From an uncultured Acidimicrobiales bacterium (GTDB lineage Bacteria; Actinomycetota; Acidimicrobiia; Acidimicrobiales; SZUA-35): DNA of 64,000 bases. Positions within the stretch are counted from its first letter, which is position 1; every line of letters begins with the position of its first letter. A model generated the notes under the pieces. It worked only from the letters and a program-made list of their open reading frames with translations. It did no database searches and was not told the DNA's origin. Of the stretch, positions 4,051-37,419 are shown piece by piece. The stretch is from assembly GCA_937925335.1 (NCBI GenBank), contig CALEWY010000012.1, positions 14,137-78,136 on the forward strand, written 5' to 3'. The translations under genes were made by a program, and so were the position numbers.

Positions 4051-4980
4051 CTCCAAGATCGCTGGCCCACTCTCGATGAGCGGGTCACCGACTCGGCTGG
4101 TTTGCTCGACCCACCAGACTCTTTCACCATCGGGGCCGATCAGCTCCACGACGAAGTTCATGCTGCGAGACCACATCTCGAGCTCGCCGAGCGGAAGACA
4201 AGGGCCGACCGCCTCGCATTCGAACCGCTCCGCCGCCTGATTCGTCAGTCGAACCTCCCATTCGTCGACGAGTCCTTGGCTCGAGCGGCCCATCGCCCGA
4301 AACGGATTGATGAGTCCATCAGCTTCGAGGTCGGCGACCGCCGCTTCCAGCGATCGGTCGCCCTCTGGCTCCACAATCGTGATGACGGCACGCGGTTCAA
4401 CCTCATCGCCAACCCAGCCAAGCACGATGAGGCCGGGCTGCTCCTGGAGCACCTCGATGCCTGCTGGCAGCTCAAGGCGAATCCCGCCAGCAACTTCGTT
4501 GGACCGGTGCTCACCCTGGGCGATGGGGGCTGGCAACTCCTCCCCCTCGGCGATCAGACTCGACTCATCATCCGACACCGCTTCCACATTGGCTCCACCG
4601 CCCTCGCTGTTGAGCAGCGCGAAGCCGCCAATCCCGCAACACACAAGAAGCGCTGCCGCCGCAAGCAGCCATCGGCTGTCTCGCAAGCGGCCCTCCGAAC
4701 GCTCCTCCCCCACGTCGAAGATGAAGACATCGGCAAGATCTTCATCTGAAAGATCGGCTTCCAACAGCCCGTCTTCAGGCCCCCGGGCATTGAGGTGGGA
4801 CACACCGGTCGAACGAGGCCGAACGCGATCCGCCGGCGGCGATTCGAGCTCTTCAAGAATTCGCTCGCGCAGTCGCGCACGACCAGGAAACGCCTGCGTG
4901 CCCTCGTCGACGACGGACCGGAGCAGTCGCTCGATCTCCTCATCCGCCAGCACGTCATCATCCTTCGACGAGTTGGTCAT
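4033..4980 (-). CDS. putative anti-sigma factor (single-pass membrane protein)
   Basis: The ATG at 4980 overlaps the sigma-factor stop (ATGA). It has a cytoplasmic N-terminus, one TM helix (WLLAAAALLVCCGIGGFALL) and an extracytoplasmic C-terminal domain. Confidence 0.6.
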   Translation of the reverse strand: MTNSSKDDDVLADEEIERLLRSVVDEGTQAFPGRARLRERILEELESPPADRVRPRSTGVSHLNARGPEDGLLEADLSDEDLADVFIFDVGEERSEGRLRDSRWLLAAAALLVCCGIGGFALLNSEGGGANVEAVSDDESSLIAEGEELPAPIAQGEHRSNEVAGGIRLELPAGIEVLQEQPGLIVLGWVGDEVEPRAVITIVEPEGDRSLEAAVADLEADGLINPFRAMGRSSQGLVDEWEVRLTNQAAERFECEAVGPCLPLGELEMWSRSMNFVVELIGPDGERVWWVEQTSRVGDPLIESGPAILESLRFD

Positions 4981-5549
4981 GCCCGCTCCTCCTGTCGTCG
5001 CGAGGTTTCTTGCCATGCCCTTGAAAACCCACGGCGCCCCCTCGCCAACAGTGATTCAGCAGCCCGGTACTCAACACCAAGTGCGGTCGCCACCTCAGCA
5101 ACCGAGCACTCATCGAGATACCGAAGCGCCAACGCTGCTCGCTGTCGCGATGGCAGCGATTGCAACGCTTCGACAACGGCCTCGCTCGTGTGGTCGAAGA
5201 CCCCCGGCCCGTCCGCCTCGAGATTGATTGTCTGGTCAATTGCTTTACGAGCCTTCTCAACACGACGCCGATTGCGCTCTTCCGCTCGCCACTGATCAAC
5301 GATCCGTCGCTTCGCAACGACAAAAAGCCACGGTCGGTCGATCTCGCTCCCGCGCCCGCCAGCAAAGGCTCGCGCTGCAGCAACGAATGCCTCGGACGTA
5401 ACCTCTTCGGCGGTCACGGTGCTGCCGGTCCGTGCAAGACAGAACCGGTAGAGATCGTCGACGTTGGTCTCGTAGAGCGCGACGAGGGCAGCCTGCCGTG
5501 GCTTGTGGCCTCCCTCAAGGTGTTGTTCCACCCGACTCCTCGTGCCCAT
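4977..5549 (-). CDS. ECF (sigma-70 family) RNA polymerase sigma factor
   Basis: Region 2 (DDLYRFCLARTGSTVTAEEVTSEAF) and region 4 (LPSRQRAALALRYLDECSVAEVATALG) motifs are present. Confidence 0.85.
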   Translation of the reverse strand: MGTRSRVEQHLEGGHKPRQAALVALYETNVDDLYRFCLARTGSTVTAEEVTSEAFVAAARAFAGGRGSEIDRPWLFVVAKRRIVDQWRAEERNRRRVEKARKAIDQTINLEADGPGVFDHTSEAVVEALQSLPSRQRAALALRYLDECSVAEVATALGVEYRAAESLLARGRRGFSRAWQETSRRQEERA

Positions 5550-5699
5550 GACGCCTACAACGACGCGCGGCCGCTCAATCCGTCGCTCAATCTGTCATGC
5601 CGCCGAGTTTTCCAGAAGATCGCCACATGCGCTCGTGCTCAACTGGCCTCCACCTGCCCGCTTGGGTACCTTCCGAGCCGACTCACGAAGGGGAACATC

Positions 5700-7424
5700 A
5701 TGGGGACCAGGTGGATTATCGAGGGCTCGATCGACGATCGCTGGCCGATCAACACGCGGGGCAATGTCGGCGAGGTGTTCCCCGAAGTCGTCACGGCTCT
5801 CGGATTCGAATACGCCGTGCGGCCTGCCGAGCGAGCGTGGCGCCAGGCCTACGTCGACCTTGGAATCCACAACGACGGTGATTTCAGCAGTGACGAGCCG
5901 GTGATCATCGGTCTCTACGGCGGCTACACCTATCTCAACCTCTCGTATCTGCGAATGATGGGCGTCCGAGCCCCCGGTTCGTCAGCTGAAGCGATCGATG
6001 TGGCCTTCTTCGGCGAGGGCAACCCGCCGCCCTATGAACCTCGTGATGGCGACAAGAGCATCAAGTCATCGCTGAAGATTCTGCTGACCGTGTTGAAGGC
6101 ACTCGGACAAAAGGATCTGCCCGAGCCCGCCACCGACAGCTTCAAACGAGTGGCAGCGTTCGAAGCGAAGCGCCCGTCGCTCGACGCGGATGACGACGTG
6201 CTCCTCGCCTACCTCGATTCGTTCCCGGCAGCGTTCGAGCCAGTGTTTGCCAACCACATGAAGACCACGGCGCTCGCCGCCATCGTTTCGGGCGTGCTCG
6301 CCGATGCGGCAACCGCTGCCGGCAAACCCGGTCTTGTGACCGAGCTGATCGGCGCGGCCGGCGATGTTCATTCAGCGCAGTACTCAGTTGCCCTCTACGA
6401 GATCGCCAAGCAGGTGAAGGCGTCGTCGTCGATGACGGCCGCGTTCGACACCGGCGTCGACGGCCTGCTCGGACGCCTTCCCGATGATGACGACGGCGCA
6501 GCGTTCACGAAGGCCTTCGACGCCTTCACCGCCGAGCACGGCCAACGGGGCCCGAACGACTGGGAGCTGTCGGCCCGCACATGGGACAACACCCCCGAGC
6601 TCGCTCTCGCCGCCATCGACTCGATGCGCCGGGCCGACCATGACCTGTCACCGGCGAACCGCCTCGCCGACGACGACTCCAAGCGAGCCGCAGCGATCGA
6701 AGCCGTGCGTCCGCACGTGAAGTTCCTCGACAAGTTGAACTTCGACAAGGCAATCAAGGCCGCTCCGTATTGGGCACAAGGCCGAGAAGCCACCCGCGAC
6801 CGAGCGGTGCGCATCATGTTGCCGGTCAAGCAGGTCTATCGCGAGCTCGTTCGACGCGGCGCCGAACGAGGCGGGATCGACGATCCGGTAAGGGTTGCGT
6901 TGCTGGAGCCCAAGAAGGAGCTGCGCGACTACCTCAAGGACCCCTCGTCGATGCTCGGAATCCTCGAAGAACGGGGCGCCTTGTTTGATCGCTATGCGGC
7001 GGTTGAGCCTCGCTTCTTCATCTCATCCCAGAGCGAGGTGCCGACCCTCGAAGAGCTCGAGGCCGAGAACGCCGAGCGGGCAGGAGCTGCGGCCGTCGGT
7101 GATGTGCTCAAGGGCGATGCCGGCTCATCTGGTGTTGCTCGAGGCAAGGCTCGTGTCGTGCTCGACCCGGCTGATGGCTCGGCGCTTGAGCCCGGCGAGA
7201 TTCTCGTCGCTCCCCTGACCGATCCGAGTTGGACACCGCTGTTCCTTCCGGCCGAGGCGGTCGTCGTCAACGTCGGTGCCCTCATGAGCCACGCCGTGAT
7301 CGTGGCCCGCGAGCTCGCAATCCCAGCCGTCATTGCGCTCGAAGGTGCGACCGAGCGCATCGAAACCGGAATGCTGATCGAGGTCGACGGCACGGCCGGC
7401 ACCGTCACCGTGATCGAAAGCTGA
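5700..7424 (+). CDS. PEP-utilizing enzyme (mobile/swivel His domain) family protein
   Basis: The ATG at 5700 follows GAAGGGGA. The C-terminus reads GSSGVARGKARVV...ILVAPLTDPSWTPLF...GALMSHAVIVARELAIPAV, a phosphohistidine swivel domain. The N-terminus reads WPINTRGNVGEVFPEVVT. Confidence 0.75.
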   Translation: MGTRWIIEGSIDDRWPINTRGNVGEVFPEVVTALGFEYAVRPAERAWRQAYVDLGIHNDGDFSSDEPVIIGLYGGYTYLNLSYLRMMGVRAPGSSAEAIDVAFFGEGNPPPYEPRDGDKSIKSSLKILLTVLKALGQKDLPEPATDSFKRVAAFEAKRPSLDADDDVLLAYLDSFPAAFEPVFANHMKTTALAAIVSGVLADAATAAGKPGLVTELIGAAGDVHSAQYSVALYEIAKQVKASSSMTAAFDTGVDGLLGRLPDDDDGAAFTKAFDAFTAEHGQRGPNDWELSARTWDNTPELALAAIDSMRRADHDLSPANRLADDDSKRAAAIEAVRPHVKFLDKLNFDKAIKAAPYWAQGREATRDRAVRIMLPVKQVYRELVRRGAERGGIDDPVRVALLEPKKELRDYLKDPSSMLGILEERGALFDRYAAVEPRFFISSQSEVPTLEELEAENAERAGAAAVGDVLKGDAGSSGVARGKARVVLDPADGSALEPGEILVAPLTDPSWTPLFLPAEAVVVNVGALMSHAVIVARELAIPAVIALEGATERIETGMLIEVDGTAGTVTVIES

Positions 7425-21568: not shown

Positions 21569-22264
21569 TCACTCGCGGGTTCGCACATCCAAGTCATCGA
21601 GCGCTCCCACGTTGAGGTCGACTCGGCCGTCGACTCCCTCAACCCAATACACACCGCCAAGTTGCCAGATCGGCAGGGGCTCACCGGGTCGGCGTAGGAA
21701 GTTGAGCGCCCACTCCGGACGGTCGAACCACTCGAATGGTTGGTAGACCTCGACGAATTCTGCGCCGACATTGAACACCAGCTCGCGACCAGCCGCTTGT
21801 TCGACCAACTCGACGAAGGTTGAGAGTTCGGTCTTCATCTCCCCCCGGCTCGGCAACGTTGTGCAGTTGCCAGCGATCTCCAGGTCGACCGCGGGTGGAA
21901 GGTCGGCCGAATCAAAGTCGACGATCGAGATGAAGTGATCAGCTTGCTCGCGACCCGGCGAGCAGAATGTGAAGAAGTGATAGGGACCGATCAGCAAGTC
22001 GGTGGCCGAGGATGCACGCCAGTTCTCCTCGAATCGGGGGTCGATCCAATCCATGCCCTCGGTCGCTTTGATGTAGACAAACTCAGCTTCAGAATCGGCA
22101 ACAGCTGGCCAGTCGATCGGGCCTTGATGGTGCGAAACATCGATCCCGAAGACTTCTCCTGACTCGAGGCCAGGGCGGTAGTTCGGAAGCCACCACCACC
22201 AGACGATCGTTGCGACAAGCGCAACACTCAGTACACATCCGCTCAACCATTTGAGAACCCGCAC
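21569..22264 (-). CDS. GH25 muramidase with N-terminal membrane anchor
   Basis: GIDVSHHQGPIDW...FVYIKATEG...GPYHFF motifs follow the TM segment LSVALVATIVWWWWL. Confidence 0.85.
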   Translation of the reverse strand: MRVLKWLSGCVLSVALVATIVWWWWLPNYRPGLESGEVFGIDVSHHQGPIDWPAVADSEAEFVYIKATEGMDWIDPRFEENWRASSATDLLIGPYHFFTFCSPGREQADHFISIVDFDSADLPPAVDLEIAGNCTTLPSRGEMKTELSTFVELVEQAAGRELVFNVGAEFVEVYQPFEWFDRPEWALNFLRRPGEPLPIWQLGGVYWVEGVDGRVDLNVGALDDLDVRTRE

Positions 22265-22819: not shown

Positions 22820-22909
22820 GCGACCGCTGTTCGGACCAAACTGCACCCTGGTCGACTACCTGAACGAATCTGCCTGAACGAATCTGCCTCGACCAAAGCC
22901 GCCAACACA

Positions 22910-24439
22910 CTACGAACCGGAATCGACCACCGTGATCGTGATCGTCCGGGTCACCCCAGCGTCGCCCCCTGCATCGGCTTCATCGAATGGTGTGACGGAG
23001 ATGACGAATTCTCCCGGGACGAGATCCCACTGGCCGTAGTGGCTGTAGTCACCTTGCTGGTCTCCAAACATGGCAAACGGCAGGACGCTCTCGATTCGGA
23101 TGTGTTCGCCGTCGTTGAGATCGAATCGAACGCTCGCCACATCGACCGTTGCGTCGGCTCGCATGTTGAGCGCCGAACCAATCTCCGCGATGTCGAGAAC
23201 CTGGCCATCGTGAAGGCCGACGACATCCTCGTCAGTCTCGGCATCGACCAGCGTGAGGCCGGTCACACCCGCCGGCCACGATGCTGGAGGTCGATCGTCG
23301 ACGACCGTGAAGGAGAGGACCGTCGCCTCCGCCCGCTCGCCGGAACGGTTTGGCCCAGAGAATGGCGTCACCGAAACCTGGATCGGCCCGGGTGTTGGCG
23401 TCCAACCGCCACCGGGAGCCATGACGAACGGCGCCGCTGAATCCGTCGCTCCTCGGCGATCGACGACGAAACGAACGCTGATCACATCAGCACCAGCATC
23501 CGCCTTGATGCCGAATCGGTCGGGAAGGTCGGTGAGGTTCACGGTGGCACCATCGGTCACCTGAACCGCTTCGACGCCTGTCGCAGGGTCGGTGATCACG
23601 ATCGACCGAATCAAGAGATCGAGCGGCGCTGGATCACCCGAGTCGAAGACTGGCGCATCGTCGGTGATGCCCTCGTCAGCGGTGCCGTCAGCGCCCTGCC
23701 CCGTGTCGTCAGCACTGCCGTCAGCGCTGCCGCCACCAGGACCGACGGTGCCGTCATCAGAGCGGGAGTGGGTGGATTCAGAATCATCAGAGCCATCGAC
23801 GACGTTGGTCGAGTCGTCGGCGGTTGCATCGGTCGACACGGCTCCGTCGTCACTTCCGGACACCCCTGATGCCTCGTCGGTCAGGTCGACCGGATCGTCA
23901 CCACCTGGGATCGGCAGGCCTTCAAGATCTCGACTGGAGCCGGTGTCATCCCCAAATGGCAGCTCGGATACTTCTGGCACCGAGTCGGCCGGCGTTTCGG
24001 TCAACACTTGGCTCGCTCCGGTCGCAGCGAGCCCAACGACGACCAGAACCGCAGCCGCGACGGCTCCGAGGAAGGCGAAGCGCCGGCGGTTGCCTTCGGG
24101 TTGCGCCGATCCCGGGAACGCAAGAACGTTCTCACCACCAGCGCCGCCTGCTGGATCCTCGTCGAACTCGTTCCAGTCGAAGGACGTCGGCGCAAGATCT
24201 GCGTTGGTGTCGGGGTCGAGCAGCACAACCGGAGCCAACACGTCGTTGTCATTCGAGCAATCGTTGTCTGGGGTAGCGAGCGAGGCTCGGACGTCACGAG
24301 CGGACCGGGCGGCGAGCGCGCTCACCCATGACCCGTCGACGTCAGCGGCGAGCTCGGCATTGACCGAGTCGGTCCAGTCGTCGAATATCTCTTGTTCACC
24401 AGCGCTGAGCTGGTCCATCTCTTCGTCGCGCATCGTCAT
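22910..24439 (-). CDS. anti-sigma factor with two extracytoplasmic beta-sandwich-like repeats
   Basis: ATG 24439 overlaps the sigma stop (ATGA). It has one TM helix (FAFLGAVAAAVLVVVGLAATGA), an acidic linker, then two repeats of about 110 aa that are homologous to repeats in the 25185..28631 protein. Confidence 0.65.
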   Translation of the reverse strand: MTMRDEEMDQLSAGEQEIFDDWTDSVNAELAADVDGSWVSALAARSARDVRASLATPDNDCSNDNDVLAPVVLLDPDTNADLAPTSFDWNEFDEDPAGGAGGENVLAFPGSAQPEGNRRRFAFLGAVAAAVLVVVGLAATGASQVLTETPADSVPEVSELPFGDDTGSSRDLEGLPIPGGDDPVDLTDEASGVSGSDDGAVSTDATADDSTNVVDGSDDSESTHSRSDDGTVGPGGGSADGSADDTGQGADGTADEGITDDAPVFDSGDPAPLDLLIRSIVITDPATGVEAVQVTDGATVNLTDLPDRFGIKADAGADVISVRFVVDRRGATDSAAPFVMAPGGGWTPTPGPIQVSVTPFSGPNRSGERAEATVLSFTVVDDRPPASWPAGVTGLTLVDAETDEDVVGLHDGQVLDIAEIGSALNMRADATVDVASVRFDLNDGEHIRIESVLPFAMFGDQQGDYSHYGQWDLVPGEFVISVTPFDEADAGGDAGVTRTITITVVDSGS

Positions 24440-25080
24440 GACGGTGCGACCTCCTCCAGCGTGCGGGTCAATCGTTTGAGGGCACGAAAGCGAAGCGCTC
24501 GTACCCCGCCTTGTTTCTTGCCGAGCATCGTTGCGATCTGCGCTGTCGACAGCTGGCCGAGCACGCTCAGCCGGATCACTTCGGCCTGGTCGATGGGCAG
24601 TTCGTCGATCAACGCGCTCGCTTCACCAGTGGAGAACCGAGCGAGGACGGCTGCCTCGGGATCATCCGCACTGACCGCTCGGTCGATTTCAGAGTCGTCG
24701 TCACTCGCTTGGGGGCGAACCGACCGCTTTCGATAGTCGTCGATCACGAGGCGATGCATGATCGTGAAGGTCCATGCTCGGAAGTCGGCCTCGTCACCGT
24801 CGAAGTCAGCGATTTTCTTTGTGATCCGAAGGAACACTTCGCCGACCGCATCTTCAGGGTCCGGCGCTCCCTTCGATCGGGCGTAGCCGAGGAGCTGGCC
24901 GGCGACGCTGCCGATCAAGACGTTCCACGCCGCATCCTCACCGCGTTGAGCGGCGGCCAAGAGGCCATCGAAATCGTGGAGCGACGGCGTGTGATCAGAG
25001 GACCGACGGCGCGGCACGCCACCCGGATACCGGGACACCGATTGCGGTGTCGACGAAGAGGAGGGCGATGACAAAACCAT
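24436..25080 (-). CDS. ECF sigma factor
   Basis: The start is taken at ATG 25080. Region 2 (FLRITKKIADFDGDEADFRAWTFTIMHRLVIDDYRKR) and region 4 (LPIDQAEVIRLSVLGQLSTAQIATMLGKKQGGVRALRFRALKRL) are present. Confidence 0.85.
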   Translation of the reverse strand: MVLSSPSSSSTPQSVSRYPGGVPRRRSSDHTPSLHDFDGLLAAAQRGEDAAWNVLIGSVAGQLLGYARSKGAPDPEDAVGEVFLRITKKIADFDGDEADFRAWTFTIMHRLVIDDYRKRSVRPQASDDDSEIDRAVSADDPEAAVLARFSTGEASALIDELPIDQAEVIRLSVLGQLSTAQIATMLGKKQGGVRALRFRALKRLTRTLEEVAPS

Positions 25081-25184
25081 ACGAGGCAAAGCGAGCCGGG
25101 CCGGGCTCTCCTTGTTGTCGACACAGCTGGCGCAGAGCTGTAGCGACGGTGTCCACGGGGACTGCAAGGGGAGCCCGGTCCGCA

Positions 25185-28100
25185 TCAGCCGACCCGAGGT
25201 GACTCGGGCCGACTGAGGTCGGTGGCGGTGTTGGTGGCAACATCCCCGCCGTCTCCGTTGCCGGAGCGATAGAGAACAAATCGATCGATGCGGTGACCCG
25301 CCGAACGACCAGAGATCTCGATCGTGTAGGTGCCTGGTGAATCGAAGCGAGCAAACACGGAGTGGGCGTCGCTGTCGCTGGTGTTCGACGTCCAACCGAA
25401 CTGGCCGTTCGATCCGCCGGATCGGAAGATCTTGAACCAACCATCCTTCGTGGCTCCCTCAACGATCGGTCCGGAGCAGTCATTGCCAGGAAGCGGATGA
25501 CGTGGGCACTTGATGCTGGAGCCACGCTCGCCATAGAAGGAGTCGCCGTGGATCCGGAGCCATGAATCGTTCGACTCGGTCGGGTTCGTTCCTTCGCCGA
25601 AGGCGTTGTACCACTGGAAGCGATAGCTGCCGGGTTCGTCGATCTGGACCTGCACGGTGATGGTGCCATTGCCAGGTGTGCCGAAGTTGTTCGATCCGCC
25701 CCACTTGATGGAGCTACGGCCGGCCTGGGTGTGGGTGGTCCACGGGCTCGGTGCGTTCAACGACTCCGACTCGACAACCACCACACCATCAACCGCCTGG
25801 AACGCACCGTCGCTTGACGGTTGGGTGGTCGGTGCTTGGGTGGTCGGCGCTTGCGTAGTCGGCGCTTGCGTAGTCGGCGCTTGGGTCGTTGGCGGCTGGG
25901 TCGTTGGCGGCTGCGTTGTCGGAGCTTGGGTCGTTGGTGAGGTCGACGAGCGGACCACCTGGACGGTGATCGAGCGTGTCGTACCCGCCGTTCCCTGGGC
26001 GCCGTCGGCGCCAAACGGTGTGGCGGCAATGGTGTAGGTGCCGGGTGCGGGCGACCACTTGAGGTAGTCGCTGTTTCGATCACCGGCGAGGGCGTACGGA
26101 GCGATGTTCTCAACCCGCAGACGGTTGCCGTTCAGGTCGAATCGGACACTCTCCACGCTGGCGGCTGCGTCCGCTCGAACGTTGAGCGAGGAACCAACAG
26201 CCGAGAGATCGATGACCGAGCCGTCGACGAGCGCTCCGAGATCTTGATCGGTGTTGGAGTCGACGAGCACGAAGCCCGAGATGTCGCTCGATGGCACGGT
26301 TGTTGGAGCGGTGGTGGTCGGCGCAGCGGTCGTCGGGACCGTTGCGTCGTCGATGATCGTCACCGTGATCGTTCGACTCTCACCAGCCGATCCACTCGCG
26401 CCTTGCTCGGTGTAGGGCGTTGCCGAGATCGTGTGAGTGCCAAGCGTCGGCTCCCACGAATCGAAGTAGTCACCATCGGTGTCCCCAAAGAGGGCGAACG
26501 GTGCAACGTTCTCAAGACGGAACCGCTGGTTGCCATCGAGACCAAACCGAACGCTCGAAGTGTCAGCTCCGGCGTTCGCCCGAATCGTGATGGACGAGCC
26601 AACGTCGGCGAGGTTGATGACCGCACCATCGGTGAGACCCGCTATGTCGGTGTCAGAATCCGCGTCGACGAGCACGAACCCGTCGATCAGGTTTCCAGTC
26701 GTCGGAGCAGCGGTTGTTGGAGCCTGGCTCGTTGGTGCTGCCGTGGTCGGTGGCTGGGTCGTTGGAGCCTGCGTGGTCGGTGGCACGGTGCCGTCGAGGG
26801 TCAACATCACCGCCCAGTCCTCACCGGTTTGGTTCGGCGCCGATCCGAGATCGACCGTTGCGCCACCCGTGACCGAGCCGCTCCTCGTGTATTCGCCGGT
26901 GCGTGGGTTGAACCACGAGACGATGTAGGTGGCGCTGTCGCCCCTCAGATCGAGACGGAGGTTGGAGCCGGTGCGGTCGTTGAAGACGGCGTAGCTCTCA
27001 CCGGGCTTGGCGAGCACGTAGGTGTTGCCTGTTGGGCCGCTGCCGAGGTTGTGGTTCGGTGCCATCTCCTGCACCGGCAACACATCGAAGAAGCCTGTTG
27101 CGTAGCCGGTCCACGTGAGGGCCGGGCCGAGGATGGAGAAGTCGTCGATCTGCTGGTCGAAGCTGTGGCCGCCGCCGTCTTGTTGGACGTACCACTCAAA
27201 GCCGCCACCACCGCTCATGTAGAGCGGCCACATCTTGTCTCGACGAGCTGCGATGTAGCCGCGCGTCGTGTCGGTGAGGTCGTTGTGAATCGGTTGGGGT
27301 TCGTCCATCGACACGACGAGAGGCGTGCCGGCAGCAGCGGAACGATCACGCCATTCGATGACGAGGTCCGACATATCGGTGCGGGACTGGGTTCCCTGGA
27401 AGGCCGTGATGTCAAAGTCCTCATTGCCGAGAAGCGGTCCGTAGAACTCCTCGAACCGGTTGGTATGCGTGTGTGTGGTCACGGCGTTGTCGTAGCCGTC
27501 GATGCTCTTCAGGTAGTCGGCGAACTCACGATGGCGAGCGGTTCCGTAATCGTTCTCCTCGCCGATGTCCCACTCGACGCCGAGGTTGTGGCCAAAGCGT
27601 GCGACGAGCTCTCGGTAGAAGAGGCGCCGTTCGTTGCCGAGCTGTCCGTTATCGAAGAAGTTCTCGTTGCCGGGTTCGGTCTCGGCCAACACGATGTGGA
27701 GGTAGATGCCCTGTGTTTGAGCGTGGTCGAACACCATGCCCCATTGATCGAGCTTCGAAAGGTCGTAGCGGCTTCGCTCTGTCTCGCTCACCATCGGGAA
27801 GGTGTCCCGGCCGTCGCCGCCGAGATTCATCGGCAGGAAGTAGATGTTGTTCGCACCGGTGCGGTTCAAATAGTTGAGGGCGCCGATGATGGCGCGGCCG
27901 TCGTTGAGCCCAGGGTTGTCGGGAGAGTCCCAATCGGGATCGCCGGGGTTCCAGTCGCCAACGTGCGAATCGAAGTCGTGGCCAGCGTCTGGTGTGTTGT
28001 CAAAGCCGACATAACCAAGGAAGTTCTCGGGGATGTTGGCGCCGCCCTTGATGAACGCATCGCCGCTGCCTTCGAACGTGAGGTAGTGCCCGCCGGTGTT

Positions 28101-28631
28101 CGTGATGCGACCGTTGTTCGTGTTGCGGAAGTCAGACTCCGGTTTGTCCGACGGGGCGACGTCGAAACTTCCGGACTCACCATCGAAGAACGCAGCATTG
28201 CCCGCGTTCGGGTCGGCGGCGACGGACACGTTTGCGCCGGATCGGAAGCTCGCTTCATACGTCCAACGACCGGTGGTTGGCGGCGCGAAGTTGGCCTGCC
28301 ATTGATCGCCGCTGCCTCCGCCGGATCCATCACCGGCGTAGAAGCCGGGAACGGTGATCGATCGCGAGCCTTGCGTGAAGGTCACGTCGAGCCGGTAGTC
28401 GAGGAACGGATTGACGAGTGCAGACTCGGAGGTTTGCGGGCCCGAGAAACTCACCGTGGTGCGGTGCCATTGCATCGTGTCGCCGGAGACTGCTGCATCG
28501 TCGGCCGGCATCAGCGCAGCGATCGCAGGAACGACGTCGGTCGTTGCGATCGCCGCCCCCGAAAGCAGCGTGGCAGCGACCGCAAGGGCGCAGGTGCGAG
28601 ACCGGAACGATGAGCGGTGAGGGAAAGGCAT
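25185..28631 (-). CDS. secreted multidomain DUF5060 + GH5-like glycoside hydrolase with Pro/Thr linkers, two beta-sandwich repeats and a C-terminal CBM-like domain
   Basis: 1148 aa with a signal peptide. The DUF5060 pattern is present (WHRTTVSFSGPQTSE..NPFLDYRLDVTF..VPGFYAGDG). A TIM-barrel-like core follows. There are three (A/Q)PTT linkers and a C-terminal domain (DGVVVVESESL...HRIDRFVLY). Confidence 0.8.
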   Translation of the reverse strand: MPFPHRSSFRSRTCALAVAATLLSGAAIATTDVVPAIAALMPADDAAVSGDTMQWHRTTVSFSGPQTSESALVNPFLDYRLDVTFTQGSRSITVPGFYAGDGSGGGSGDQWQANFAPPTTGRWTYEASFRSGANVSVAADPNAGNAAFFDGESGSFDVAPSDKPESDFRNTNNGRITNTGGHYLTFEGSGDAFIKGGANIPENFLGYVGFDNTPDAGHDFDSHVGDWNPGDPDWDSPDNPGLNDGRAIIGALNYLNRTGANNIYFLPMNLGGDGRDTFPMVSETERSRYDLSKLDQWGMVFDHAQTQGIYLHIVLAETEPGNENFFDNGQLGNERRLFYRELVARFGHNLGVEWDIGEENDYGTARHREFADYLKSIDGYDNAVTTHTHTNRFEEFYGPLLGNEDFDITAFQGTQSRTDMSDLVIEWRDRSAAAGTPLVVSMDEPQPIHNDLTDTTRGYIAARRDKMWPLYMSGGGGFEWYVQQDGGGHSFDQQIDDFSILGPALTWTGYATGFFDVLPVQEMAPNHNLGSGPTGNTYVLAKPGESYAVFNDRTGSNLRLDLRGDSATYIVSWFNPRTGEYTRSGSVTGGATVDLGSAPNQTGEDWAVMLTLDGTVPPTTQAPTTQPPTTAAPTSQAPTTAAPTTGNLIDGFVLVDADSDTDIAGLTDGAVINLADVGSSITIRANAGADTSSVRFGLDGNQRFRLENVAPFALFGDTDGDYFDSWEPTLGTHTISATPYTEQGASGSAGESRTITVTIIDDATVPTTAAPTTTAPTTVPSSDISGFVLVDSNTDQDLGALVDGSVIDLSAVGSSLNVRADAAASVESVRFDLNGNRLRVENIAPYALAGDRNSDYLKWSPAPGTYTIAATPFGADGAQGTAGTTRSITVQVVRSSTSPTTQAPTTQPPTTQPPTTQAPTTQAPTTQAPTTQAPTTQPSSDGAFQAVDGVVVVESESLNAPSPWTTHTQAGRSSIKWGGSNNFGTPGNGTITVQVQIDEPGSYRFQWYNAFGEGTNPTESNDSWLRIHGDSFYGERGSSIKCPRHPLPGNDCSGPIVEGATKDGWFKIFRSGGSNGQFGWTSNTSDSDAHSVFARFDSPGTYTIEISGRSAGHRIDRFVLYRSGNGDGGDVATNTATDLSRPESPRVG

Positions 28632-28999
28632 AACGAGAACTCCTGGAGGGTGATGAATCCAAACGAGACGTGCTGTTCATGACCGACGCGTGTTTGCTTC
28701 GTGAGTCCGCGCCGATTCAGAGACGTCAACGGGCCGCCCGGCGCAGGTGTTACGGGTCGGGCAGAACTCCTCGGGCGTGTGAGGCGTTTGGCCTCACCCT
28801 TGTTGCCACATGATCAGCGACACACCCAAGGTTGATCAGTCACAGAACGTGCGGACCCAACACCGTTTGCGGCCATTACCTGTCGGTAACTTTCTCGCGA
28901 CTTTGAAGGTGCTTCGGGGGTCTGATTTCTGACGCCACAGTGACGTCGACGCGGTCGCCCACCGGCCGCAACCCCCGTATGAAGGAAGTACCCCCGACC

Positions 29000-31177
29000 A
29001 TGGCAATGTTCCAAGAACTGGGCGAGTTGTTGTCCAGCAGCGGCGACCTCGGCACAGCCTCACGAGCAATCGGTTCCGACGACGAAGGCACGCGATCCGC
29101 GCTCGCCTCGGCCGTCCCTGTTCTGCTGGGCAGCCTCGGAAAACGAACGAACAGTCCCGGAGGTGCATCAGCGCTCTTCGACCTCGTCAAGGGTCAGGAC
29201 GGATCGATTCTGACGAACCTCGGCGCTGCGTTCAGCGACAGCGACGACAGCGGCCTCAACAGCTCGTTCGTCGACGGACTCCTCGGCGGCGGCAAGGAGC
29301 AGGTCTCACAAGGTCTCTCACAACAGACCGGCCTCGGCACTGGCCAGATCGCAAAGCTCCTGCCGATGCTCGCACCGATCGTGCTGGGCTTTCTCGGGAA
29401 GAAGCAGACCGACGGCAACCTCGACCAGGCCGGACTCGTCGGCTCGTTGGCGAACGAACGAGTGGCGATGGAGTCGGCTGGCTTCGGCTCGCTCCTCGGC
29501 CTGCTCGACAGCGGTGACGCAGAAGAAGACGACCGAGGCTTCCTCGGAAGCATGGGAACCATGACCGGCCTCGGCGGACTCGCAGCCGGCACCGCAGCGG
29601 CCAGCCAACTCACCGGCCGCGCCGGTGAAGGACTGAGCGGAGCCGCTGATGGCCTTGCCGGCCGCGCCGGTGAAGGACTGAGCGGCAGCAGCGATGGACT
29701 CGCTGCGGCTCGCGGAGGAATCGACGGTGCAGCTGACAAGCTCACCGGAGGAGCTGCGGCGGCAGCAGGTGGCGTGTCCGACGGAGTCACCGGTGCGGCT
29801 GACAAGCTCGCCGGTGGCGCCGCGGCCACCGTTGGTGGAGTGGCTGGCGGAGTCACCGGCGCGGCAGGCGGCATGACCGACAAGGTCACCGGTGCGGCAG
29901 GCGGTGCAGCCGGCAAGGTGACCGGCGCGGCAGGCGGTATGACCGACAAGGTCACCGGTGCCGCTGCAGGAGTTGCTGGTGGAGTCACCGGTGCTGCAGG
30001 CGGTATGGCGGGCAAGGTGACCGGTGCGGCAAAGGCGCCCTCCACCGCAGTTCGCAACACAACCGGCGCAGCCGGAGCCGCTGTGGCAACACCCGTGATG
30101 GCTCATGACGACGACCGCAAGGGCGGGGCGCTCAAGTGGCTCCTTCCGTTGCTGCTCGTTGGAGTCATCGGCGTTGGTCTCTGGGCCGCATTCAGCGGTG
30201 GAGACGACGAGGATGTCGCAGCCACCGCCGACAACGCCGCAACAACGACCCAGCTCGAAGAGATGGCTGACGAGGTCGAAGAGATGGCCGACGAAGTCGC
30301 GATGACCGACGAAGACGGTGCTGACCACTCTGACGGCGCCGACGACGCGATGGCCGACGACGAGGCAATGGAAGACGACGAGGATGCGATGGCAGACGGA
30401 TCGGCCGACGGTTTCGTCGCCGGCAACATCCTCGACGCTGGCGACAAAGACGGTCAGGTCAGCGGGTTCTTGGGTGCGGTCTCCGCAACGGGACTCAACG
30501 CTGAACTCGACGGTGAGGGCCCACTCACGATCTTTGCTCCAAGCGACGAAGCGCTTGCCTCGCTGCCCGAGTCGATCACGAGTGATCCCGAGAAGCTCGA
30601 GCGAGTGCTTCGCAACCACGTCGTGTCCGGCGACTTCCCGGCCGATGCTCTCGTCGACGGCCCGCTCACCTCACTCGATGGATCAGACCTCAACGTTTCG
30701 CTCGGGTCCGGCAGCCCCGTGATCAACGGCGCAAACGTGGTCACCGCCAACCTCGGCGGCGGCAACGGAACGATGCACGTGATCGATCGGGTTCTCCTCC
30801 CAGCCGATTTGATCAGCGCTGCTGGCGGCTCGCTCAATGAGGCGCTTGGCATCCAGCCGATCAACTTCGAAGTGGGATCAGCCGTGATCACCGCAGACAG
30901 CACCGCGGTCCTCGACGGTGCCGCTGACTTCCTCATCACAAACGGAACGGTCGTTGAGATCGCCGGTCACACCGATGCTGATGGCAACGATGCATCGAAC
31001 CTCGCACTGAGCCAGGCTCGGGCCGAGTCGGTCATGGCCTACCTCACCGAGAAGGGTGTAGCCGCCGAGAACATGACGGCGGTTGGCTACGGCGAGACCG
31101 AGCCGATCGCGAGCAACGACACGCCAGAGGGCAAGGCGGAGAACCGCCGCATCGAGTTCGTCGCCTCGGCGAGCTAA
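29000..31177 (+). CDS. DUF937 - Gly/Ala repeat - TM - acidic region - fasciclin (FAS1) - OmpA_C mosaic protein
   Basis: SD AAGGAAG precedes ATG 29000. The segments are DUF937-like (LLGSLGKR...LLPMLAPIVLGFLGKKQ), FAS1 (PLTIFAPSDEA...GTMHVIDRVLLP) and OmpA_C (GHTDADGNDASNLALSQARAESV...NRRIEFV). Confidence 0.8.
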   Translation: MAMFQELGELLSSSGDLGTASRAIGSDDEGTRSALASAVPVLLGSLGKRTNSPGGASALFDLVKGQDGSILTNLGAAFSDSDDSGLNSSFVDGLLGGGKEQVSQGLSQQTGLGTGQIAKLLPMLAPIVLGFLGKKQTDGNLDQAGLVGSLANERVAMESAGFGSLLGLLDSGDAEEDDRGFLGSMGTMTGLGGLAAGTAAASQLTGRAGEGLSGAADGLAGRAGEGLSGSSDGLAAARGGIDGAADKLTGGAAAAAGGVSDGVTGAADKLAGGAAATVGGVAGGVTGAAGGMTDKVTGAAGGAAGKVTGAAGGMTDKVTGAAAGVAGGVTGAAGGMAGKVTGAAKAPSTAVRNTTGAAGAAVATPVMAHDDDRKGGALKWLLPLLLVGVIGVGLWAAFSGGDDEDVAATADNAATTTQLEEMADEVEEMADEVAMTDEDGADHSDGADDAMADDEAMEDDEDAMADGSADGFVAGNILDAGDKDGQVSGFLGAVSATGLNAELDGEGPLTIFAPSDEALASLPESITSDPEKLERVLRNHVVSGDFPADALVDGPLTSLDGSDLNVSLGSGSPVINGANVVTANLGGGNGTMHVIDRVLLPADLISAAGGSLNEALGIQPINFEVGSAVITADSTAVLDGAADFLITNGTVVEIAGHTDADGNDASNLALSQARAESVMAYLTEKGVAAENMTAVGYGETEPIASNDTPEGKAENRRIEFVASAS
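29615..30035. repeat. in-frame tandem repeats (about 45-bp and about 36-bp periods) encoding GRAGEGLSG and GAAGGMTDKVTG units
   Basis: ggccgcgccggtgaaggactgagcgg occurs at 29615 and 29660. ggcggtatgaccgacaaggtcaccggtgc-type units recur between 29860 and 30035. Confidence 0.8.
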
Positions 31178-34456: not shown

Positions 34457-34554
34457 CGGTCAGGTACCAATTCGATAGAGGTTGGTCGACCGTTTGATCA
34501 CCACCGGCCGCTTCATGGCCGTTCGATCACCGCCGTTCGGTCAGGACCGTTCGG

Positions 34555-35016
34555 TCATGGCCGTTCGATGGCAACAGCCCAACAACCGCGCTCGGCGTTG
34601 TGCACGTGCAGGTGGGTGGAGTTCGGGTCGGCGAAGAACCGTTCGATCATCGCTTCGAGATCGCCGCCGTCGATCACCGACGCCGCAATCATCATCTCGT
34701 CGGAATCGAACGACCGAACGGACAGCTGCCTGATCGTGAGCTGGTCGGGCAATCGCTCGTTCGCCGCCACCACGTCGATCGTGCAGGTCTCTCGATGGAT
34801 GAAGATCGGGCTCGCTGATCGATACGGACTGTCACCGTCGAATGGATCATGCGAGACGAGGATCAACTCCTCGCCGATGTCTGCATCTCGAAGACACTGA
34901 CGACACGGATAGCCGGGGTTCGAATCAGCGACGTACACCTCGCCACCTGTAGCCCGAAACCGCTCGGCTGCATCGTTGGGGATCGGCTTCAGGACATAGC
35001 TCTGGGTGCTCAACAT
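34555..35016 (-). CDS. DUF1203 domain protein
   Basis: 153 aa with the NPGYPCRQCL motif. Confidence 0.7.
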   Translation of the reverse strand: MLSTQSYVLKPIPNDAAERFRATGGEVYVADSNPGYPCRQCLRDADIGEELILVSHDPFDGDSPYRSASPIFIHRETCTIDVVAANERLPDQLTIRQLSVRSFDSDEMMIAASVIDGGDLEAMIERFFADPNSTHLHVHNAERGCWAVAIERP

Positions 35017-35737: not shown

Positions 35738-36712
35738 CTAGGGCCCCGCCTCGACCCACGCTTCTGGCGTCGCCGGCTCGAGTGTCGCGAGGAACGCTTC
35801 GAGTTCTTCAACCGTCGGTTGTCCAGCCGATTCAGTGCACGCTCGGGCACTGCTCAGAATCCACGCGCCCGATGGTCGAGTCACATCGATGCGGCCGAGC
35901 GCCGTCTGGCCCTCTTCACACTCACGACCCGATGTCACCCTGGTCACGGAGCTCCCGTCATCAAGAGATGCAAGGGGTTCGCAGGTTTGAGAATCCAAGC
36001 AATCAAACGTGCGCAAACCTGCGTTGAGCTCGAGCTCGAACCCCGTGTCGGTGACGACATTGATGTCGACGTCACTGATCGCATAGCTCCCAACAGATCG
36101 GTCGTACTCCACGACCTGCCACCCTGGGAGTGTTGCAGCGAGTGCGTCTTCGTTCACCACTGCAAGAGGGATCCCGCTCTCCTCGAGGCGGTTGGCGAAA
36201 GCGTTGTTCCGGTTCGCCAGACCGGCGACCGTCGCCGCGCCCACGAGCACTACCGAGAACAGGAGCGCAAGGCCCCTCGGAAGCGATGGAGACTCTCCGA
36301 CACCAAAGATCAGGCCGAGGAACACGAGGCACGACACCGCAATGCCCACGATTGGGCCGAGCGCCGGATAGCCGTTCGATGCTGCGCCGACGTCAACGAT
36401 CCAACCCGCGATGAGGCCAGCCGGAAGCCACGCACCGGCCAAGAGGCGCGAAAACGGTCGATGGTTGCGACCACGAGTCAGCAGCCAACCGCCGGCCAAA
36501 CAGCCGATGAAAAATCCGAGAGCGAAGCCGATCAACATGCCGTAGAGGCCGGGAAGAGCTTCGGTATCGGTCCCTCGGTTTCGGTCAGAAATCAAGAACC
36601 CGGCGAAGACTCCGACGATGCCGCACACCACTGCGAACGCAAGGCCAAGAATCGGACTGACAAGCGCTGGAGCAACGATCGATCGCTGCTCGTCGGATCG
36701 AACCTGTGCCAT
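35738..36712 (-). CDS. hypothetical polytopic membrane protein with extracytoplasmic C-terminal domain
   Basis: ATG 36712 is preceded by a GGGAGGAGGAG SD. There are about 6 hydrophobic helices. Confidence 0.55.
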   Translation of the reverse strand: MAQVRSDEQRSIVAPALVSPILGLAFAVVCGIVGVFAGFLISDRNRGTDTEALPGLYGMLIGFALGFFIGCLAGGWLLTRGRNHRPFSRLLAGAWLPAGLIAGWIVDVGAASNGYPALGPIVGIAVSCLVFLGLIFGVGESPSLPRGLALLFSVVLVGAATVAGLANRNNAFANRLEESGIPLAVVNEDALAATLPGWQVVEYDRSVGSYAISDVDINVVTDTGFELELNAGLRTFDCLDSQTCEPLASLDDGSSVTRVTSGRECEEGQTALGRIDVTRPSGAWILSSARACTESAGQPTVEELEAFLATLEPATPEAWVEAGP

Positions 36713-36760
36713 CTCGCTCCTCCTCCCGAGCTCAATCGGGTGCAATACAAGCTCGGGTCT

Positions 36761-36802
36761 CACACTGCTTGTTTCACACTGCTTGTTTCACACTGCTTGA
36801 AT
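36761..36802. repeat. 14-bp tandem repeat x3 (cacactgcttgttt, third copy cacactgcttgaat)
   Basis: Read directly. It lies between the CGNR gene stop and the membrane-protein start. Confidence 0.85.
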
Positions 36803-36846
36803 CACACCGTTCGACGTGACGAGATCACATCCGGTTCAGAAGTTAC

Positions 36847-37419
36847 TCAAACACCACCGGCTCGACGCGCCCGGTGATCGGCCGTGTGCGTCTTGCTCGC
36901 ACACCGCGGATCATCGCAGAACCGACGCGAACGGTTACGAGTGCCGTCGTAGAACAGCCGCTCACAATCGGCGGCGGCACAGCGCCCAAACCGGATCGTG
37001 CCGTTCTCGACGAGTTCTTGTGCCGACGCCATCACGAGGTCGGCGATGACCTGGTCATCAAACGTTGCCGTGTTCGGCGTCCAGTGCATATGGGGGCCGG
37101 TGCCATCGTGGGCCACGATCGAGGGGGTGATCGGAAGCTCGGTCAACTCTTCGTTGACCCGGGCCAGTGCCTCCTCGGTCGAACACTCCGGGAACTCGGC
37201 GACCAGTTGGGTCAACGACACGAGCCGTGTGCTCAACCGTTGAATCGACGCCGCTGACGCTCCGCTCGCCCGACTGAATCCGCCGTTGGCCAACGTCGAT
37301 CTGGCATCGAGTTCACCAGCAGCCAAGTCATTCGCGAGCGCAACGAAGGCCTCGAGCGTGATCCGAATCTCTGATTGCGCGGTCGATGCAACGTGCATGT
37401 GACGCACGCTACCAAACAA
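36847..37419 (-). CDS. CGNR zinc-finger (ABATE domain) putative regulator
   Basis: The C-terminus reads RFGRCAAADCERLFYDGTRNRSRRFCDDPRCASK. Confidence 0.8.
   Translation of the reverse strand: MFGSVRHMHVASTAQSEIRITLEAFVALANDLAAGELDARSTLANGGFSRASGASAASIQRLSTRLVSLTQLVAEFPECSTEEALARVNEELTELPITPSIVAHDGTGPHMHWTPNTATFDDQVIADLVMASAQELVENGTIRFGRCAAADCERLFYDGTRNRSRRFCDDPRCASKTHTADHRARRAGGV

Follow-up and report, generated by a model that had tools for sequence, protein, structure and literature searches.

To our knowledge, the sensing of a polysaccharide by an anti-sigma factor through the enzyme's own module has been demonstrated experimentally only for the SigI/RsgI systems of cellulolytic Firmicutes. 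Here we describe a locus from an uncultured actinobacterium, lying in a 64-kb stretch of DNA that was analyzed at its full length (the window). A secreted glycoside-hydrolase-like protein (H), a sigma factor of the extracytoplasmic function (ECF) type and a putative anti-sigma factor (A) are encoded one after another, and H and A carry modules of the same kind. We propose that the three genes form a switch that senses an extracellular polysaccharide and controls its own glycoside hydrolase, a reading that we judge to have an even chance of being correct.

In Clostridium (Acetivibrio) thermocellum the RsgI ectodomains carry family 3 or 42 carbohydrate-binding modules (CBM3, CBM42), tandem PA14 domains or a glycoside hydrolase family 10 (GH10) module as their sensors (PMC4711584, PMC10328401, PMC6852018), and the GH10 module of RsgI6 shares 57% identity with Xyn10D, a xylanase that is regulated in this way (PMC4711584). 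As in our locus, the anti-sigma factor there is a single-pass membrane protein with a C-terminal sensor that is homologous to modules of a secreted enzyme, and the 57% identity between RsgI6 and Xyn10D has its counterpart in 56% identity between H and the ectodomain encoded at a related locus, L002. The sigma and anti-sigma genes of SigI/RsgI form an autoregulated operon, as may be the case here. However, the sigma factor here is a two-domain ECF protein nearest to BldN and ShbA, not SigI, and it matches ECF models only. A lacks RsgI_N, having no Pfam match at all, and in place of a juxtamembrane autoproteolytic SEAL domain it has an acidic low-complexity tether (PMC10556640, PMC10328401). The sensor module and the enzyme come from uncharacterized families, and the host is an Acidimicrobiia-like actinobacterium. 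Membership of the SigI/RsgI family is ruled out by the ECF-type sigma factor together with the absence of RsgI_N and of a SEAL domain. By analogy, the switch probably works like SigI/RsgI, built from different, unstudied parts.

Actinobacterial ECF sigma factors with extracytoplasmic carbohydrate-type domains are known in groups ECF52 and ECF53, for example SCO4117, and in this they are like our locus. In these proteins an extracytoplasmic linker rich in proline is followed by domains that are predicted to bind carbohydrate or to be glycosyl hydrolases, the function of which is unvalidated (PMC8999054, PMC10766802, PMC5826349). There the sigma factor, a zinc-finger anti-sigma-like segment, transmembrane (TM) helices and the carbohydrate domain lie in a single polypeptide, whereas here they are divided between separate coupled open reading frames (ORFs), with a stop codon inside the sequence ATGA and no zinc-finger motif.

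The closest specific models for the sigma factor are BldN, which is paired with RsbN in Streptomyces venezuelae (PMC6101532), and ShbA (PMC12019637), and the BldN promoter hexamers equal those of a motif upstream of H. RsbN resembles A in having one TM helix between 117 cytoplasmic residues and a large ectodomain, and in its lack of likeness to other anti-sigma factors (PMC6101532). The scores here however fall far short of the family cutoffs (for BldN 79 bits, with a cutoff of 206, and for ShbA 67 bits, with a cutoff of 209), and the promoter spacer is 17 rather than 16 nt. The targets of BldN and ShbA are the chaplin and rodlin genes or hrdB, with no hydrolase among them, and A has no detectable similarity to the solved N-terminal domain of RsbN.

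Finally, the ECF, anti-sigma and SusC-like signaling linked to polysaccharide utilization loci in Bacteroides couples the availability of a glycan to the expression of glycan-degrading genes (PMC10766802), as is proposed here. It differs in that a TonB-dependent transporter detects the glycan and passes the signal on to the anti-sigma factor, within a Gram-negative envelope (PMC10766802), and its anti-sigma factor bears no module of the type found in carbohydrate-active enzymes.

A locus whose enzyme and putative anti-sigma factor share a module

All genes of the locus lie in the same orientation on the minus strand, and coordinates are positions in the window. The modules of H are termed H1 and H2, and those of A are termed A1 and A2; all four are supported by pairwise alignment and tblastn.

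25185..28631, minus strand: H, secreted multidomain glycoside-hydrolase-like protein of 1148 aa
24436..25185, minus strand: ECF sigma factor, probably 249 aa from the ATG at 25185-25183, or 214 aa from the ATG at 25080
22910..24439, minus strand: A, putative anti-sigma factor, single-pass membrane protein of 509 aa
26346..26690, minus strand: module H1, H residues 648-762, AlphaFold2 (AF2) predicted local distance difference test (pLDDT) 92.8
25947..26285, minus strand: module H2, H residues 783-895, 55% identical to H1
23294..23623, minus strand: module A1, A residues 273-382, degenerate
22919..23266, minus strand: module A2, A residues 392-507, intact, at the distal tip of the ectodomain

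The modules are each about 113 residues long. Smith-Waterman alignment gives z scores of 18-46 between all pairs (300 shuffles per pair), bearing out an alignment made by eye in the preliminary description of this DNA, where two modules of about 110 residues in A were matched to two in H. A2 is 47-49% identical to H1 and H2, and A1 is 30-37% identical to the other three. There are exactly four copies in the 64-kb window by tblastn, with none elsewhere in it. A1 lacks the near-universal E...GD..G.Y loop of the family and retains 20 of 50 consensus positions, the lowest number among 185 modules compared. A2 retains 33 of the 50, including E60, P64, G69, D70, G73, Y75 and W78, and its nearest relatives are both modules of the fusion protein encoded at L002 (52% identity).

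The ORFs and their domain matches agree with the gene order given in the preliminary description, i.e. H, sigma factor and A on the minus strand, and the overlap of the sigma stop codon with the start of A as ATGA is read directly from the sequence. The 104-bp gap that had been placed between H and the sigma gene is probably no gap, as it hinges on the ATG at 25080 being the sigma start. The ATG at 25185-25183 is in the sigma frame, and overlaps the stop codon of H as TGATG. Over the 35 codons that separate the two candidate starts the G+C content of third codon positions (GC3) is 0.83 in the sigma frame, compared with 0.62 in the other two frames. A value of 0.83 is usual for real genes in the window, the mean in-frame GC3 of which is 0.74 ± 0.08, and only 1% of off-frame windows reach it. 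The 249-aa protein was also chosen by an independent gene call for the same locus. Because of the TGATG start, the GC3 value and this gene call, the former gap is probably sigma coding sequence, and H, the sigma factor and A therefore seem to belong to one operon. Both overlaps, TGATG and ATGA, argue for a single unit, as does the GC3 profile, and we conclude that such an operon is probable.

The enzyme, its module family and two related loci

From the N-terminus H comprises a signal peptide, DUF5060, a (beta/alpha)8 barrel, a Collagen_bind_2 sandwich, and then H1, H2 and a C-terminal domain (Hc), each preceded by a Pro/Thr linker. Pfam matches DUF5060 at residues 53-130 (E 2.6e-20) and Collagen_bind_2 at residues 535-610. 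For residues 1-645 an AF2 model was built on 32 homologues; its pLDDT is 88.8, and comparison with the PDB using Foldseek gives matches with E 9e-23 to 1e-15. The best of these is the GH5 beta-mannanase 9gpg (E 9e-23), and others include 4n0r, a structural-genomics "putative glycoside hydrolase", and the GH140/GH5-like structures 5msy (GH140), 3kzs and 4qfu. Since the fold matches are to GH5 and GH140 structures, the label "DUF5060/GH5-like" under which this secreted protein had been described is correct, and it is supported likewise by the Pfam match to DUF5060. The model thus predicts a clan GH-A-type (beta/alpha)8 barrel, making H a putative glycoside hydrolase. Four glutamates, E317, E358, E359 and E444, are invariant in the 32 homologues, and their catalytic role is putative. 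A profile search of the PDB with the enzyme region gave a single, weak match, again to 4n0r (E 3e-4).

Homologues of the catalytic region number at least 1559 at E<=1e-10, and the only names given to any of them are "DUF5060 domain-containing protein" and "hypothetical protein". In the literature on DUF5060 we found nothing bearing on function. The neighbors of 23 genes encoding DUF5060 plus the module (89 flanking genes) included no family common to more than two cases, and gave no clue to a substrate.

The module has an AF2 model that is an all-beta sandwich (pLDDT 92.8), from which we take it to be an Ig-like beta-sandwich. Its best match in the PDB is to the fibronectin type III (Fn3)-like modules of CbhA (E 6e-4, query-normalized TM-score 0.48-0.52), and part of the sensor ectodomain of BT4663 matches with a TM-score of about 0.6 (E 0.03-0.09). 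The module is not covered by any model in Pfam or NCBIfam, nor by a sequence in the PDB, so that the failure of the preliminary description to assign it to a named family is upheld. At E<=1e-3 a profile made from 12 copies of the module matches 8709 clusters, taken as their 50%-identity representatives, of which 6042 remain at E<=1e-10. In a genome search it occurred in Bacteroidota, Planctomycetota, Chloroflexota, Actinomycetota, Verrucomicrobiota and others, and the best match among GTDB species representatives was 54% identical.

The module is the habitual partner of the DUF5060/GH5-like enzyme family. It is present in 59 of the 120 closest homologues of H, in a terminal position, usually as a single copy directly after the signal peptide and sometimes at the C-terminus. 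In other homologues of H its usual place is occupied by CBM6/CBM35 or CBM96. The module and the enzyme are encoded in one ORF at 27 of 79 genomic module loci, and these include almost all of the top-ranked loci. Being terminal, moving between termini and exchanging with true CBMs, the module behaves like a CBM, although this is circumstantial. It is not a member of any defined CBM family, by sequence or by structure. On its predicted fold it is a discrete beta-sandwich appended, as CBMs are, to catalytic domains of carbohydrate-active type, and it may bind carbohydrate.

H ends with a further domain.

25188..25817, minus strand: Hc, C-terminal domain of H (residues 939-1148, about 210 aa), uncurated

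Hc has no Pfam match above noise and no sequence match in the PDB. It accompanies the module in nine other proteins, where it is usually N-terminal, and four of eight relatives give weak matches to GH115_C. Hc may be a second uncurated CBM-like domain.

Scanning the 79 genomic loci that contain the H-type module with the sigma factor of the window revealed two in which a close sigma gene lies just upstream of the module gene. The first is L002, from an Acidimicrobiales metagenome-assembled genome (MAG). Its sigma factor is 46% identical to that of the window (phmmer E 2.8e-44) and looks like its orthologue, and the partner gene begins 28 nt past the sigma stop codon. The partner protein consists of an N-terminus of about 100 residues, a TM helix, DUF5060, the barrel, Collagen_bind_2, and two modules each preceded by a Pro/Thr linker. 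Over 911 residues its identity to H is 56%, in an alignment that stays collinear as far as and including both modules, and its EENDY and DEPQ motifs are intact. Judged from its sequence, then, in L002 the whole enzyme with both modules is fused to an anti-sigma-like protein. The L002 fusion and the adjacency of the genes in the window link the same sigma clade to the same enzyme family in two different ways. Synteny in related genomes had been suggested as a check on the original idea, and this fusion makes the connection between enzyme and sensor stronger than could be seen from the window.

The second is L010, from an Actinomycetota MAG, with a sigma factor 41% identical to that of the window and a partner gene starting 4 nt later.

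4969-7146, plus strand: L010 anti-sigma-like single-pass protein, with a middle ectodomain of about 250 aa (residues ~150-400) followed by two C-terminal modules

The middle ectodomain is unrelated and has no Pfam or PDB match; by sequence comparison it is a third ectodomain variant of a small family. The N-termini of the L002 and L010 proteins are similar (z = 5.9). Across the ectodomains of the window, L002 and L010 the distal pair of modules is constant, and the middle part varies.

The sigma factor, its putative partner and a candidate promoter

Pfam finds Sigma70_r2 at residues 59-120 of the sigma factor and Sigma70_r4_2 at 156-204, with no region 3. It scores 79.3 bits on TIGR02937 (cutoff 42.9), and its PDB matches are ECF sigma factors without exception. 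On these matches it is an ECF (group IV) sigma-70 factor that has regions 2 and 4 only. Of the specific models, it scores best on the BldN family (TIGR02952, 79.0 bits, cutoff 206.45), and ShbA (PRK09648, 66.7 bits, cutoff 209) is fifth among the models listed. The L002 and L010 sigma factors score best on ShbA, at 98 and 85 bits, also far below the cutoff. None of the three therefore reaches the membership cutoff of BldN or ShbA, which are the closest models and no more than that. The probable N-terminal extension of the sigma factor (25081-25185, minus strand; MRTGLPLQSPWTPSLQLCASCVDNKESPARLALPR) holds a CxxC pair. In Streptomyces coelicolor, BldN is synthesized as a pro-sigma factor that has an N-terminal extension. 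A second ECF sigma factor in the window (4977-5549, minus strand) is SigM/SigE-like by NCBIfam, and is unrelated to that studied here (phmmer E 1.4e-8).

A begins with a cytoplasmic N-terminus of about 120 residues (1-120), and a TM helix at residues 121-143 is preceded by RRR. Residues 144-270 form a 127-residue acidic low-complexity linker with a net charge of -32 (D27, G20, S17, T12), in which we detected no folded domain, and the protein ends with the degenerate A1 and then the intact A2. It has the generic features of a membrane-bound ECF anti-sigma factor, being ATGA-coupled downstream of the sigma gene and single-pass with the N-terminus inside. From this coupling, the topology and the two related loci, A is a putative anti-sigma factor. 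Residues 1-146 have no match in the PDB at E<=10. The N-terminus contains no HxxxCxxC zinc motif, its 120 residues holding no histidine and a single cysteine. It has in common with the N-termini of the L002 and L010 proteins a short motif, W-x3-[LV]-[RN]-A-[DE]-[LV]. A search of 5.8 billion clusters for orthologues of A returned A itself and three matches that share the module, where the acidic region may have saturated the word filter.

Upstream of H we find a candidate promoter.

28726..28754, minus strand: putative ECF-type promoter CGTAAC-N17-CGTTGA, with the -35 element at 28754-28749 and the -10 element at 28731-28726

Its distance from the start codon of H is about 95 nt. ECF-type promoters of autoregulated operons have a -35 element containing AAC and a -10 element containing CGT. 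BldN has been reported to recognize CGTAAC-N16-CGTTGA (PMC2375139), ShbA to recognize CGTAAC-N16-CGATGA (PMC12019637), and the mycobacterial and corynebacterial SigD to recognize GTAAC-N17-18-CGAT (PMC12019637). The hexamers upstream of H equal those of the BldN motif and resemble those for ShbA, with a spacer of 17 as against 16 nt. The pattern GTAAC-N15-18-CG[AT]TGA has two matches in the window where 0.12 would be expected, a number reached by one of 100 shuffles; allowing up to two mismatches, the matches are at the level of chance. The second exact site, CGTAAC-N17-CGATGA at 36911-36939 (minus strand), has ShbA-type hexamers. It sits within the 3' end of an ORF for a CGNR-zinc-finger-like protein (36847-37419), about 150-200 nt upstream of the gene for an unrelated 341-aa multi-TM protein (35738-36763). 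Two exact sites in 64 kb greatly exceed what chance would give, so the motif probably represents a true class of promoters in the genome. It is reasonable to infer that H, the sigma factor and A could be transcribed from the one promoter by this sigma factor, as a putative assignment.

An ECF promoter shared between the regions upstream of 28631 and 25080 had also been suggested. This is not borne out, as the bipartite words shared by the two number three, with 7.7 expected; the region upstream of 25080 is probably coding, which makes the comparison moot there. Nothing was common to four upstream regions that were compared, no convincing motif emerged de novo from the regions upstream of 75 related sigma genes, and a scan for sigma-70 promoters and terminators was uninformative. 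About 25 nt upstream of the -35 element of the putative H promoter there is a perfect 7-bp hairpin, GTGAGGC-caaac-GCCTCAC (28779-28797), with no T-run after it on either strand.

Around the locus, a gene for a GH25 muramidase (21569-22264, minus strand; Pfam Glyco_hydro_25, E 1.6e-30), with an N-terminal hydrophobic segment, lies on the same strand as A and 645 bp downstream of it. Divergent from H, a plus-strand gene at 28940-31177 encodes a 745-aa protein with DUF937, an acidic segment and fasciclin and OmpA-like domains, and contains long Gly/Ala-rich tandem repeats at 29614-30031. Tandem repeats of 14 nt occur at three places: 3.4 copies of TCACACTGCTTGTT at 36760-36807, in the interval from the second promoter-like site to the gene for the 341-aa protein; 4.1 copies of TCACGGCCGTTCGA at 34513-34569; and 2.2 copies of CCTGAACGAATCTG at 22859-22889, just 3' of the A stop codon. 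An Rfam scan of the window gave no match.

A polysaccharide-sensing switch and its alternatives

In the switch that we propose, A would hold the sigma factor at the membrane via its cytoplasmic N-terminus of about 120 residues, and its acidic, disordered tether of about 130 residues would carry a degenerate module and an intact one outward across the cell wall. The intact distal module A2, of the same kind as those in DUF5060/GH5-like enzymes, would bind the polymer targeted by H, or fragments of it. Occupancy of the module would lead to inactivation of A, presumably by regulated proteolysis, with release of the sigma factor. The freed sigma factor would then start transcription of the operon at the CGTAAC-N17-CGTTGA promoter that lies upstream of H. 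Enzyme, sigma factor and anti-sigma factor would rise together, giving positive feedback with a built-in reset. A substrate-sensing feedback circuit was already suggested in the preliminary description. Its anatomy is right, and the link between enzyme and sensor is strengthened by the L002 fusion, the association of enzyme with module and the promoter motif; the suggestion is weakened by a module that proves to be generic and ubiquitous.

Several observations weigh against such a switch. The second exact motif at 36911-36939 means that the motif is not specific to the probable H operon, and it could belong to another ShbA- or SigD-like sigma factor; no comparable motif occurs upstream of the L002 or L010 sigma genes. 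A has no Pfam or NCBIfam match to an anti-sigma factor, and its N-terminus compares with those of the L002 and L010 proteins at z ~1, which is not significant. A hidden Markov model built from the N-termini of partners of related sigma factors matches the L002 protein (E 1.7e-5), and gives A at E 0.33. Eighty metagenomic relatives of the sigma factor (35-44% identity) have short partners, many of them single-pass, and none carries the module. Among the 120 closest homologues of the enzyme there is no other fusion to an anti-sigma factor, as judged by a late anti-sigma-type TM segment. Module-bearing anti-sigma factors therefore form a small offshoot, known from three loci. The modules of A and H, at 47-48% identity, are no closer to each other than to modules from other genomes; they are thus not recent copies of each other, and show no sign of recent co-evolution. 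The module family is huge and promiscuous, with up to 45 tandem copies per protein, and proteins rich in the module also bear type IX secretion system (T9SS) tails, PKD, Big_7, fn3, beta-lactamase, GDSL lipase and PA14 domains. Foldseek comparison of the module with the PDB gives distant Ig/Fn3-like matches alone, indicating a generic fold with no close solved relative.

These properties of the module give rise to the alternative that best survives, in which it is a generic structural Ig-like unit, a stalk, spacer or means of surface retention with no specific ligand, and A senses something unrelated to the substrate of H. The sharing would then reflect the pool of extracytoplasmic domains of one organism. 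A generic Ig/Fn3-like fold with no close CBM relative, a family of 8709 clusters with so many unrelated kinds of partner, and the lack of any special kinship between the modules of A and H are all as this would predict. A might sense envelope stress or the state of the cell wall through its acidic disordered segment of 127 residues, for which there is a precedent in Bacillus subtilis RsgI, where an extracytoplasmic disordered region is the sensing element (PMC9732909). Taken alone, the fold and the results of the profile searches amount to the generic, ubiquitous Ig-like unit that the preliminary description had named as the outcome that would undo its proposal, but this is countered by the tie to the enzyme family. 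The pair of modules is at the distal C-terminus in A and in the L002 and L010 proteins. A spacer would be badly placed there, as it would not separate a further domain from the membrane. In half of the closest enzyme homologues the module is terminal, where others bear true CBMs, and A2 keeps the strongly conserved acidic and aromatic loop (E60, D70, Y75, W78). The fusion of the whole enzyme in L002 ties the switch to the enzyme family whatever the role of the module. We consider a purely structural module unlikely, and it nevertheless keeps substantial weight given a promiscuous family.

In another alternative what A senses is not the polymer but the enzyme, or what the enzyme produces. The modules of A might pair with those of H, so tethering or counting the enzyme, or might bind oligosaccharides that H releases. 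The same type of module is present on both proteins of one probable operon, and the L002 ectodomain is an enzyme with intact catalytic motifs, so local formation of product could be the signal. Set against this, in most homologues the module is single. We regard this alternative as rather improbable.

That A is not an anti-sigma factor, but a membrane-anchored surface protein that shares the operon while the real regulator of the sigma factor lies elsewhere or does not exist, would fit the lack of Pfam, NCBIfam, PDB and HxxxCxxC matches and of significant N-terminal likeness to the partners of related sigma factors, yet it is very improbable in view of the ATGA overlap, which couples translation of A to the sigma gene immediately before, the single-pass, N-in topology with about 120 cytoplasmic residues in the same layout as RsbN (PMC6101532), the same arrangement after the L002 and L010 sigma genes, the single-pass partners after many of the 80 relatives, and the W-x3-[LV]-[RN]-A-[DE]-[LV] motif common to the three N-termini.

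Returning to the polysaccharide-sensing switch, we advance a broader suggestion tentatively and with some doubt, namely that the three loci belong to an undescribed class of polysaccharide sensor in Acidimicrobiia/Actinomycetota, combining BldN/ShbA-like ECF sigma factors, anti-sigma factors of a new type, ectodomains that interconvert with enzymes, and a new CBM family. The anti-sigma ectodomains may interconvert with the DUF5060/GH5-like enzyme by fusion and fission. In one genome (L002) a catalytically intact, membrane-tethered enzyme may itself be the sensor, and in the window a free enzyme may be paired with an anti-sigma factor that keeps the modules alone. The module of about 113 residues may represent a new, widespread carbohydrate-binding family, with more than 8000 sequence clusters.

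If the proposed switch is correct, the principle of using a module of an enzyme as the sensor extends to sigma factors of the true ECF type, and to a lineage of uncultured actinobacteria. L002 and the window provide a natural pair, fused and split, in which to ask whether it is catalysis or binding that signals. The locus also draws attention to two large uncharacterized families, the module (about 8700 clusters at 50% identity, with no Pfam model) and the DUF5060/GH5-like enzymes (at least 1559 close homologues). It offers a concrete context in which the ligand of these families might be found, with a sigma factor and promoter pair that could be used as a reporter.

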